Origin: Candidatus Cloacimonadales bacterium
GTDB taxonomy: Bacteria; Cloacimonadota; Cloacimonadia; Cloacimonadales; JAIOQZ01
Length of the DNA: 64,000 nucleotides
Assembly: GCA_963662655.2 (NCBI GenBank)
Contig: CAXXTU010000002.1
Location: forward strand, 1,760,001-1,824,000
Reading direction: 5' to 3'
The position numbers and the translations under genes were made by a program. Shown here piece by piece: positions 3,005 through 56,880 of the stretch (position 1 is the first letter of the stretch; each line of letters begins with the position of its first letter). Below the pieces are notes generated by a model. The model had not been told where the DNA came from, did no database searches, and saw only the letters and a program-made list of their open reading frames with translations.

Positions 3005-3023
3005 AACCTTCATACCTCACAAG

Positions 3024-3148
3024 AGTGAAGCAGATTCGTTCGATCGCCGTCTGTGCAGGGTGTTTCACAGCCTTGCTACTTTATTCTCTTTGATTTGCAA
3101 GGCTGTGGTATATCCCTGTGCAGACGGCGATCGGGCGAAGATGCCACG
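3024..3148 (+). repeat. Rod-hairpin element family 1, copy A
   Basis: Long imperfect inverted repeat ...AGATTCGTTCGATCGCCGTCTG..CAGGG..CACAGCCTTGC / GCAAGGCTGTG GTATAT CCCTG..CAGACGGCG ATCGGGCGAAGAT GCCACG. Shares motifs with the copies at 10902, 26079 and 56752. Confidence 0.9.
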
Positions 3149-3203
3149 AAGCTGCAAAAGGAACGAAAACACACCGCCTGCAGCCTCCCCTCTCTCCATC
3201 CCT

Positions 3204-3245
3204 ATCCTGTATATCCTGCGAATCCTGCAAATCCTGATTCTGACA
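3204..3245. repeat. 9-bp period tandem repeat (ATCCTGnnn)x4 ending ATTCTGAC
   Basis: ATCCTG at 3204, 3213, 3222 and 3231. Confidence 0.85.
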
Positions 3246-10901: not shown

Positions 10902-11056
10902 GTCGTGAGGAGATTCGTTTGATATCACGCGAAAACGTGGTGTTACACATCGAAAAGCGGATTGCAAATCAAAATGAATACAACGATTATCGAGTGTCCG
11001 CTTGAAGATGTGTTATATCCACGTTGGAGCGGGATATCGGGCGAAGATTCCACGAC
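10902..11056 (+). repeat. Rod-hairpin element family 1, copy B
   Basis: GTCGTG AGG AGATTCGTTTGATATC..AACGTGG TGT TACACATC..AAGCGGA / TCCGCTT..GATGTGT TATAT CCACGTT..GAT ATCGGGCGAAGAT TC CACGAC. Confidence 0.9.
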
Positions 11057-11083
11057 GGTAATCGATCCCGATACGAAGAATAG

Positions 11084-25241: not shown

Positions 25242-26033
25242 CTAATTCTCTTTCATCGCGGTCCGGCAAAGGCGCAAACCAGTATTGAAACTTCGGCAGT
25301 CTGCGCACCAATCGCCGCGTCGGCTTACACGGCTCCCCTCGGCACCGATATTCCACGTTCCACCGCGTATTATACGGGTTTCTCCATCTTGCGGCCCACG
25401 TGGATCAACCTGAGCTCCTTTCGGGTATTCGGCATACCAGTCCCAGCACCATTCCCATTGACCTCCGCTCATATCGAAGAATCCAAGCTCGTTCGAGCGC
25501 TTGAGTCCGATAGCATGCTCCGTTCCCTCGCAGTTGTCATGGTACCATCCGACCTCGTCCAGGCTGTTGCTGCCTGCGTAACGGTATCCTTTACTCGCGT
25601 TGCCGCCACGGGCGGCAAAAGCCCATTCAGCCTCGGTTGGAAGTCGGTAACCGTTAGCCGCGAAATCGCAGGTCACGATCTCGCCCATCCCCGAATAACA
25701 AGGTGTCAGCCCGTCCCTCTTGCTCAGCATGTTGCAAAATCGCACCGCATCGTACCAGCTGACCATCCCCGCAGCAAACGCGGGGTTCTTGTTCTCCGAA
25801 GGGTTCGAGCCCATCACAGACTCCCATAACGCCTGCGAGACCTCAGTACGTCCAAGATAGAAGCTCGACACCCCCACCCCGTGCACGGGCTCCTCATCCT
25901 CATTGCCGTCTTCGGAGCCCATCGTGAACTCGCCTCCCGCCACAAGGATCATGTCAGGCTCAATTCTATCCTGCGAAACAAGACCAGTACTTGCAATCAA
26001 TATCATCAAAGAAATCCATATCCACTTTCCCAT
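25242..26033 (-). CDS. Exported FGE-sulfatase/SUMF1 domain protein
   Basis: FTMGS, EEPVH, TEVSQ, YRLPTEAEW.FAARGG, NELG.FDMSG..WEWC.DWY. Confidence 0.88.
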   Translation of the reverse strand: MGKWIWISLMILIASTGLVSQDRIEPDMILVAGGEFTMGSEDGNEDEEPVHGVGVSSFYLGRTEVSQALWESVMGSNPSENKNPAFAAGMVSWYDAVRFCNMLSKRDGLTPCYSGMGEIVTCDFAANGYRLPTEAEWAFAARGGNASKGYRYAGSNSLDEVGWYHDNCEGTEHAIGLKRSNELGFFDMSGGQWEWCWDWYAEYPKGAQVDPRGPQDGETRIIRGGTWNIGAEGSRVSRRGDWCADCRSFNTGLRLCRTAMKEN

Positions 26034-26078: not shown

Positions 26079-26204
26079 GGCGTGAGTAGATTTGTTCGTT
26101 CAGCCGCGTTGACGTGGTGTTCCACACCTTATTCTTGCGCTCGATAGTCTCAAAGGTGTGGTATATCCACGTTAACGCGGCTGATCGGGCGAAGATGCCA
26201 CGCC
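26079..26204 (+). repeat. Rod-hairpin element family 1, copy C
   Basis: GGCGTG AGT AGATTTGTTCG TTCAGCCGCGTTGACGTGG TGT TCCACACCTT / AAGGTGTGG TATAT CCACGTTAACGCGGCTG ATCGGGCGAAGAT GC CACGCC. Confidence 0.9.
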
Positions 26205-26225
26205 GGTCGGACATCACCATACAAC

Positions 26226-27014
26226 TCACATCTCATCGATGTTCATCACTTCCGGCTTAGGTAGAAAATCCTGATCGAACATCCGCGCCGTGAAGAGCCG
26301 AAGCACAAGAAACACCGTCAGCGTAACTGCGGAGACAATCGCCAGCATAATCATGATCTGATACTTGATTGCCGTTACCGGACTCGCCCCGCTCAGTATC
26401 TGGCCGCTCATCATTCCCGGTAGCGCGATGATCCCCATCGCGGAGATATTCATGATGCGAGGCATCAGCGACATCTTCAACGCCTTCTGGCAAAAACCGA
26501 AGGTCGCTTCCCGGGGAGTTGCACCCATGGTGATATACGTGTAGTATTCCTTCCAGTTCGTCTTGATATCGCTGTGGAAACGCTCCAGTGCAAGCGCCGA
26601 GCTGTTCATGGAGTTCCCGAGCACCATCCCGAAAAGTGGAATAATGAAACGCGCGTTGATGAGCGGTTCGGGACGCACGATGACAATGATAACAAATGGC
26701 ATAATCAATAGCGTGGTGATCAGAAGCGGATAAGCGACCACCGGCAATAGAAAGCGCCAGTTGATGTCCAACCGCGAAATAATGGTGTGCACCGCGGCGA
26801 TGATCATGACCGCCATCCAGCCAATTGTGCTGCCCGGGTGATTCCACTTGAAAAGATATTCCAGAATCAAGCCGATCATGGCAAGCTGTACCACCATGCG
26901 CGATACCGACTTGAGCAGCGTCTTGATCAAATCGAGTTTCTTGAAACGAGAAATCACGATCGGAATCGCGAGCAGCAAGAAACTCAACACAAGACCGGTC
27001 CAGCGAATATCCAT
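26226..27014 (-). CDS. UPF0014 ABC permease (FetB/STAR2-like)
   Basis: R..VQL..IG.IL, IP..GMVLGNSMN, LPGMMSGQILSG.SP..AIKYQI; start MDIRW 2 bp after the ATPase stop. Confidence 0.85.
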   Translation of the reverse strand: MDIRWTGLVLSFLLLAIPIVISRFKKLDLIKTLLKSVSRMVVQLAMIGLILEYLFKWNHPGSTIGWMAVMIIAAVHTIISRLDINWRFLLPVVAYPLLITTLLIMPFVIIVIVRPEPLINARFIIPLFGMVLGNSMNSSALALERFHSDIKTNWKEYYTYITMGATPREATFGFCQKALKMSLMPRIMNISAMGIIALPGMMSGQILSGASPVTAIKYQIMIMLAIVSAVTLTVFLVLRLFTARMFDQDFLPKPEVMNIDEM

Positions 27015-56751: not shown

Positions 56752-56880
56752 GGACGCGAGCAGATTGGTTCGATCCTCTCTTCAGCGTGGTGCTTCACAG
56801 CGTAGTGTTCAATTTCCAATTCCTTACGGAGCTGTGGTATATCCACGGTGAAGAGAGGATCGGGCGAAGATGCCGCGTCC
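56752..56880 (+). repeat. Rod-hairpin element family 1, copy D
   Basis: GGACGCG AGC AGATTGGTTCGATCCTCTCTTCA GCGTGG..CACAGC / GCTGTG GTATAT CCACG G TGAAGAGAGG ATCGGGCGAAGAT GC CGCGTCC. Confidence 0.9.

Follow-up and report, generated by a model that had tools for sequence, protein, structure and literature searches.

Four intergenic segments of the DNA analysed here, a stretch of 64,000 nucleotides of a Candidatus Cloacimonadales bacterium genome ("the window"), are predicted to fold into long rods that resemble one another in layout more than in sequence, which raises the question of what kind of element they are, on which strand and in which molecule their shape is read, and how they have spread. 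A first-pass annotation had described them as a four-copy family and as a candidate undescribed single-stranded DNA (ssDNA) element or non-coding RNA. The four copies are real and all lie on the + strand (Table 1), but the family to which they belong is far larger than four. The pattern of the right arm has 4 matches in the window versus 0.00 in 100 shuffles. Folded as ssDNA rods, three of the copies reach z = -8.9 to -9.8, with the + strand folding better than the - strand in each, and the fourth reaches -35.6 kcal/mol on the + strand versus -30.5 kcal/mol on the - strand; folding of both strands thus bears out, for all four copies, the claim that the + strand is the better folder. Both genes next to the focal copy are encoded on the - strand, as had been reported, and no promoter-like site was found at this copy. 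The segment ATCGGGCGAAGAT, described as invariant, is so in 4/4 window copies but varies genome-wide. What had been taken for an extrahelical T is better read as a single base within a stack of mismatches (T.T, G.A, T.Y, T.T), because a symmetric 4x4 form without the spare base occurs in congeners.

Table 1. Coordinates of the rod copies, of the parts of the focal copy and of neighbouring or related features (window positions unless a contig is given).
Feature	Position	Strand	Remarks
Focal rod hairpin, 127 bp	26079..26205	+	weakly conserved unpaired 3' tail to about 26215
Outer stem with bulged A, and 5' strand of outer box (tandem G.A/A.G, then tandem T.G)	26079..26100	+
Variable stem, 5' strand	26101..26112	+	fully paired in focal copy; 10-13 nt family-wide
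Inner box, 5' strand: TGTT side of mismatch stack, then covarying X-Y pair	26113..26126	+
Tip stem-loop, subfamily-specific	26127..26156	+	14-307 nt family-wide; long tips contain a second REP-like repeat
Inner box, 3' strand, TATAT side	26157..26170	+
Variable stem, 3' strand	26171..26183	+
Outer box 3' strand and outer stem	26184..26205	+
Copy A	3023..3151	+	convergent gap; 19 nt past stop codon of + strand gene
Companion repeat "module C"	3231..3245	+	3' of copy A, same strand, as in congener trains
Copy B, long tip (67 nt)	10902..11057	+	27 nt from stop of - strand flippase-like gene
Copy D	56753..56880	+	fills convergent gap between DinG-like helicase gene and biotin ligase gene
Neighbour gene, GldK/EgtB-like domain (below family cut-offs)	25242..26033	-	outside element
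Neighbour gene, FetB-like permease	26226..27014	-	outside element; stop codon 21 nt from focal copy
Arrays of second REP-like repeat	G000:C2:772302-772614, 606518-606883, 184462-184616

Read from its base, the rod starts with an outer stem that carries a bulged A. Next come an outer box (A-T, tandem G.A/A.G, four pairs, tandem T.G), a variable stem 10-13 bp long, an inner box (T.T, G.A, T.Y, T.T, followed by a covarying pair) and a tip. The annotation's central claim, conservation of structure over sequence, is borne out by pairs that change on both sides while the fold is kept: in a 30-copy alignment 32 of 45 pairs do so, a score reached by 0/500 shuffles, and pairing stands at 91% versus 35-48% in slid controls, a control that ignores relatedness among copies. 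In well-paired stems G.T outnumbers A.C (21:3, 14:4 and 29:15), an excess which indicates that pairing is maintained on the + strand. Among the 115 of 128 copies that could be parsed, 113 have two purines at the G.A site and 0 have a Watson-Crick pair there; 91 keep the T.G tandem intact and 4 show full Watson-Crick pairing in its place. These counts lean towards intact boxes because the parsing was motif-guided. The + strand is also the better RNA fold in 114/115 copies. Most short-form tips (12/13) are C-GAA-G; PMC13037366 reports such loops to be far more stable in DNA than in RNA and to occur at phage and plasmid priming sites. A major subfamily carries a conserved unpaired motif in its tip, and in 19 rods of the genome the tip contains or adjoins a further REP-like repeat. 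This second repeat, with GAA-loop mini-hairpins, has 39 matches, distributed between tandem arrays of its own (Table 1) and the tips of long rods. A likeness to hairpin-ribozyme loops was dropped, as the registers misfit and there is no Rfam match.

In the genome under study (G000, 3.81 Mb) two arm profiles returned 131 paired matches, and a reversed-genome control returned 0 at E up to 0.1. Leaving out one opposite-strand shadow and two copies with one arm overwritten into a perfect palindrome gave the set of 128 copies used below, and retrained outer-box profiles gave 137 loci. The family thus numbers 128-137 intergenic copies in G000, with dozens in each of three congeners (G001, G002 and G003). 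A covariance model built from 30 copies found 132, 63, 39 and 31 matches, counting shadows, in the genus's four genomes and none in four other genomes of the family; across the phylum it matched 3/151 genomes and an outer-box pattern matched 4/232, in both cases all within the same genus, and the 228 other genomes of the phylum gave no match to the pattern. A scan of 185,579 species genomes yielded 28 loci, 17 of them in Candidatus Cloacimonadales bacterium; the 11 others did not score with the covariance model and were rejected. Plasmid and phage collections held no real match to the rod, pattern searches of viral contigs gave 0, 24 chance and 0 loci, and the first metagenome pattern gave 0. 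In keeping with the claim that the element is uncatalogued, Rfam 15 had 0 matches at the gathering score in the window, with weak miRNA-hairpin matches alone below threshold. A literature search, mostly without subscription journals, produced no paper on Cloacimon hairpin intergenic repeats and, within the same limit, none on MITE or ERIC stem-loops with compensatory change or on palindromic REPs with GIY-YIG; ISAzo13 was absent among the literature matches listed.

A relaxed pattern retrieved 52 metagenome and viral loci, of which one, L308, scored with the covariance model (E=8e-9). This locus, on a metagenome contig, is a 203-bp element (L308:733-935) with 19-bp inverted ends and a TTA duplication, and it splits a RelE/ParE-type addiction-module gene. 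It holds the outer box and, 11 nt further out, another tandem G.A motif. L308 is a single locus, and the outer box alone is common to it and the rod family.

The placement of the rods was analysed with gene calls made here for G000 (2,874 genes). Copies are dispersed singly through all types of gap; 127/128 overlap no called gene, 118/128 adjoin a gene 3' end, and 85 lie within 60 nt of a stop codon. Convergent gaps hold 55/128 copies versus 294/2872 of all gaps. A large, loosely defined family of secreted-looking proteins has a rod at the 3' end of 35/158 genes, compared with 131/1207 for other unit-terminal genes (P=1e-4). The flanks of the 128 copies contain neither inverted nor direct repeats beyond shuffled pairing, and no target duplication; no sequence is conserved upstream of position -12, nor is a promoter, and the sole signal of the 5' flank is a weak CGA 5' of the stem. 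Some pairs of copies share flanks of variable length. No small gene recurs beside the copies. Similarity between any two cores stays at or below 96%, giving no hint of current activity, and contigs from two runs of one sample showed no joint from which a copy had been removed, a comparison of low power given that contigs cannot show absence.

The orientation of the rods follows replication. With the origin of G000 at C2:2.767 Mb and the terminus at 0.809 Mb, both placed by skew and dnaA, the better-folding strand is the C-rich lagging-strand sequence, i.e. the leading-strand template, in 95/128 copies (P=4e-8), including 39/55 in convergent and 10/10 in divergent gaps. In a logistic model with two factors, replication accounts for orientation with P=2.5e-7 and transcription with P=0.02, the latter in the antisense sense; the folded strand is antisense in 44/63 tandem gaps. 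These P-values overstate the case because the copies are related. The same polarity was found in 38/46 copies on a congener contig, and at 10/10 loci examined in another congener the orientation agrees with local skew. The claim that the element is strand-asymmetric is supported. Young and old copies are equally polarised (28/37 and 67/91), a result in favour of a bias that acts at insertion. Away from rods, six further modules are mostly unpolarised (7/13, 7/12, 8/15, 35/70, 103/186 and 20/39), and module C is mildly polarised there as well (18/26).

Covariation in these rods has more than one possible source. The variable stem exists in an imperfect form and in perfected forms in which one arm appears to have been copied from the other: it is perfect in 38/115 copies; by heuristic labels, the right arm is the common one in 9 of these and the left arm in 2. 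According to PMC7202029, template switching at quasi-palindromes yields exactly such perfected arms. Since arm-to-arm copying needs no selection, covariation alone is no proof of function; the covariation is real, part of it can come from such copying, and stronger evidence is provided by the mismatches that are retained. Congener copies at orthologous sites keep the outer box, with inner parts that differ or have been replaced, and the outer stem covaries freely, uncorrelated with the core (Spearman 0.03-0.06); both observations suggest that copies convert one another. Core replacement is also seen among copies, as are tandem duplications. The loci G000:C2:2349467-2349737 and 2468383-2468652 share a composite, duplicated as a unit, in which a standard rod is combined with an inverted, arm-exchanged one.

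The inner box is found with its two strands exchanged, not complemented, in 8/137 loci of G000 and 11/46 on the congener contig, and both strand orders are present in all three congeners. The reverse complement of the inner box, which inversion would be expected to produce, was not seen. In the predicted fold the exchanged box retains the same mismatch stack, so that the folded single strand is most simply taken as the conserved unit. Symmetric forms exist, and stepwise change by way of them is another possible route to the exchanged box.

Synteny was compared between G000 and the congener contig G003:C4, which covers 2.54 of 4.1 Mb. Empty sites were found at orthologous loci: 15/17 syntenic sites are empty on G003:C4, and there is in addition a clean empty site. 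The empty sites compared with G000 are too diverged to fix the ends of the element. Gene order is broken at 34/51 testable rod sites versus 130/392 controls. The break rate in convergent gaps equals that of controls (13/18 vs 18/25), the excess being confined to tandem gaps (18/28 vs 49/138, P=0.006), and the same gene end lies beside a rod in both genomes at 12/150 versus 32/620 control ends (P=0.17). Because convergent gaps match controls and shared gene ends are not enriched, operon shuffling by rods is unsupported and was rejected. At the 40-kb scale, comparison of G001-G003 with the window shows gene order broken at nearly every operon boundary, at 70-85% nucleotide identity.

In G003 the rod is part of ordered trains of REP-like modules, a-A-rod-B-C-D-E. 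In every case (13/13 and 10/10) congener modules a and A share the strand of the rod and precede it on its 5' side, and modules B and C lie 3' of it (12/13 and 20/21). Trains of five to seven different repeat modules occur on G003:C4, e.g. at 823917, 849403, 1117158 and 2435652. Three of these modules flank genes elsewhere as well: A an IS200-type Y1 gene, E other Y1 genes and B DUF559 genes. In G000, 100/132 rod-bearing clusters consist of a lone rod.

An HUH enzyme, recombinase or reverse transcriptase (RT) flanked by copies was looked for and not found. G000 has no Y1 transposase. Congeners carry Y1 genes, e.g. a 137-aa candidate at G003:C4:2318621-2319034, and the 5 on G003:C4 are flanked by other repeats, none lying within 20 kb of a rod; 23 loci of DUF559, GIY-YIG, RT and four integrase genes likewise hold no rod. 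The genome has 6 tyrosine recombinases, the best of which scores 127.8 with TIGR02249 versus an integron-integrase cut-off of 265; the one directly beside a rod is XerD-like and was set aside. The sole RT found, a defence-type gene at L080:1141-2700 with Drt3b as best match below cut-off, is interrupted by one TGA; it is not near a rod and was likewise discounted. G000 has no DUF559 gene, and its GIY-YIG genes are one long UvrC-sized gene and one broken short gene; PF13366 has no match in the genus and G000 has no GxxExxY-type nuclease. PF07592 (ISAzo13 transposase) had no match in 5 genomes, a weak result in that no control genome gave a match either. The DUF559 and short GIY-YIG genes of the genus are each flanked by direct copies of a hairpin repeat of their own, and these loci (L257-L263, L265-L268 and L276) have a REPtron-like layout with non-HUH nucleases. 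At L270 and L272, both in G003, a short GIY-YIG gene lies inside an apparent 23S rRNA gene, in two identical copies. G000 also contains what we take, naming them by eye, to be 10 identical ISL3-like and 6-8 IS3-like transposases, and presumably Mu-like prophage segments, several of them near-identical (G000:C1:11921-20595, C2:479827-507485, 2744249-2752444 and 3290132-3315354).

Several known systems share features with the rods. ERIC, Correia and RUP are rod-shaped bacterial MITEs, which are similar in size, rod fold and position near stop codons; unlike them, the rod family has neither inverted ends nor target duplication, and its outer stem is free in sequence. An element of Geobacter (PMC2700814) has a different central palindrome; the rod motifs are absent from the 13/19 supplement files of that paper that were searched, and its alignment figure may bear on the comparison. 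REPINs and REP-BIMEs with RAYT (TnpA-REP; PMC3116915, PMC6006769 and PMC3733652) are likewise extragenic and present in many copies, with hairpins bearing compensatory changes, conserved blocks around a free middle, mosaics of several repeat types, and an enzyme acting in trans or missing, the CGTC REPs being without a dedicated transposase; a tie between REPs and GIY-YIG nucleases was considered and dropped, as PMC3733652 does not make it. The rod, on the other hand, has no inverted REP doublet and no GTAG/GTGG guide tetranucleotide 5' of the hairpin foot; its arms are not interchangeable, it has two mismatch boxes and a replication polarity, and no REPtron was found for it. Integron attC sites (PMC5371416) share with it the precedence of structure over sequence, two boxes with a spacer, a variable terminal structure, strand selectivity and a folded strand mostly on the leading-strand template, but the rod lacks the conserved GTT/AAC crossover triplet, its outer stem varies with compensation, and rods are dispersed at housekeeping-gene ends, with no cassette arrays and no integron integrase. 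IS200/IS605 elements and their non-autonomous derivatives (PMC6006769) also use a single-strand hairpin substrate, make no target duplication and have a fork-tied orientation; they have two subterminal hairpins of 20-25 nt where the family has one rod of 110-180 nt, the rod has no fixed target tetra- or pentanucleotide, and its folded strand lies on the opposite template, IS608 and ISDra2 acting on the lagging-strand template according to the same source. The proposal of an undescribed ssDNA element thus stands in that the family is uncatalogued, conserved in structure and built like an ssDNA substrate, though without the defining features of attC or REP.

On balance, the family is likely a non-autonomous, REPIN-like element that has been moved as folded ssDNA, probably by an HUH/Y1 enzyme acting in trans. 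At the replication fork, an enzyme that recognises structure and is provided in trans would have copied such an element in the form of one folded DNA strand; the enzyme was most likely an HUH/Y1 transposase no longer present in G000. The two boxes would be the parts read by the protein, the stems may be rewritten by template switching between arms and by gene conversion between copies, copies with "repaired" boxes would cease spreading, and polarity would be fixed at insertion. The placement of the folded strand on the template opposite to that of IS608 and ISDra2 is the main unexplained point of this best explanation, since an HUH model then needs either that the other strand is cut or a different route of insertion. 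It is possible, with less confidence, that the two-box rod is a portable, end-free module read purely as folded ssDNA by an undescribed fork-associated enzyme; it would insert with the folded strand as nascent lagging strand, tolerate a 180-degree turn of the inner box, drag neighbouring repeats into ordered mosaics, and have been adopted by unrelated inverted-repeat MITEs in other bacteria because it boosted their spread.

The remaining explanations appear less probable. A former MITE, of which the rod would be the core, could have been moved by a DDE transposase and have lost its inverted ends by decay in the genus, later spread being due to gene conversion and local duplication. L308, with an outer box inside an element that has 19-bp inverted ends and a TTA duplication, fits this history, as do the tandem duplications and core replacement; we nevertheless regard it as unlikely in view of the 128 flanks free of repeats beyond shuffled pairing, the outer stem that covaries independently of the core, the single locus and single box by which L308 is linked to the family and, as a weak argument owing to the lack of a control match, the missing ISAzo13 transposase. 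We also doubt, and somewhat more strongly, that the rods are structured RNA, whether a multi-copy small RNA, a retroposed RNA or a 3'-end signal on neighbouring transcripts. Their G.U-rich stems with tandem G.A motifs, the better RNA fold of the + strand and the preference for gene 3' ends and convergent gaps would suit an RNA, but polarity tracks replication more than transcription, the folded strand is antisense in most tandem gaps, nothing is conserved upstream of -12, the focal copy has no promoter-like site, and neither an Rfam match nor an RT near a rod was found. Replication polarity, antisense bias and the missing conserved promoter thus disfavour the non-coding RNA half of the original proposal.

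A further candidate is a single-strand origin or priming signal (sso- or ssi-like; the rod, we presume, resembles an sso), or else a site for a host protein on the leading-strand template, either of which would help the carrier DNA and so have been adopted by unrelated shells. The length of the rod (110-200 nt), its putative action on a single strand, the conserved unpaired motif in the tips of a major subfamily, and the occurrence in a shell with terminal inverted repeats (L308) and at the centre of mosaics are consistent with such a role, as are the C-GAA-G loops, which PMC13037366 places at phage and plasmid priming sites. The rod was not found in plasmid, phage or viral collections, it occurs in one genus of the phylum alone and its sites are rarely common to congeners, all of which makes this role improbable. 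Least probable of all, and very much so, is that the rods are attC-like recombination sites that shuffle operons genome-wide. Two boxes, a spacer and a free tip recall attC, the folded strand coincides with the leading-strand template, a trait also of large chromosomal integrons (PMC5371416), and gene order is more often broken at rod sites than at controls; that excess, however, is limited to tandem gaps, convergent gaps break at the rate of controls, shared gene ends show no enrichment, 0/6 tyrosine recombinases reach the integron-integrase cut-off, and there are no cassette arrays.

Only a handful of DNA elements, namely attC, REP and the ends of IS200/IS605, are known for being read purely by their shape, and each of them led to a distinct enzyme. 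The shape code of the rods, together with a fork polarity opposite to the IS608 rule and their orphan status, points to a further ssDNA enzyme or route. The family also offers nature's own test of the ways in which copying between arms and selection on mismatches shape covariation, a question of relevance to genome-wide searches that take covariation as evidence of RNA.
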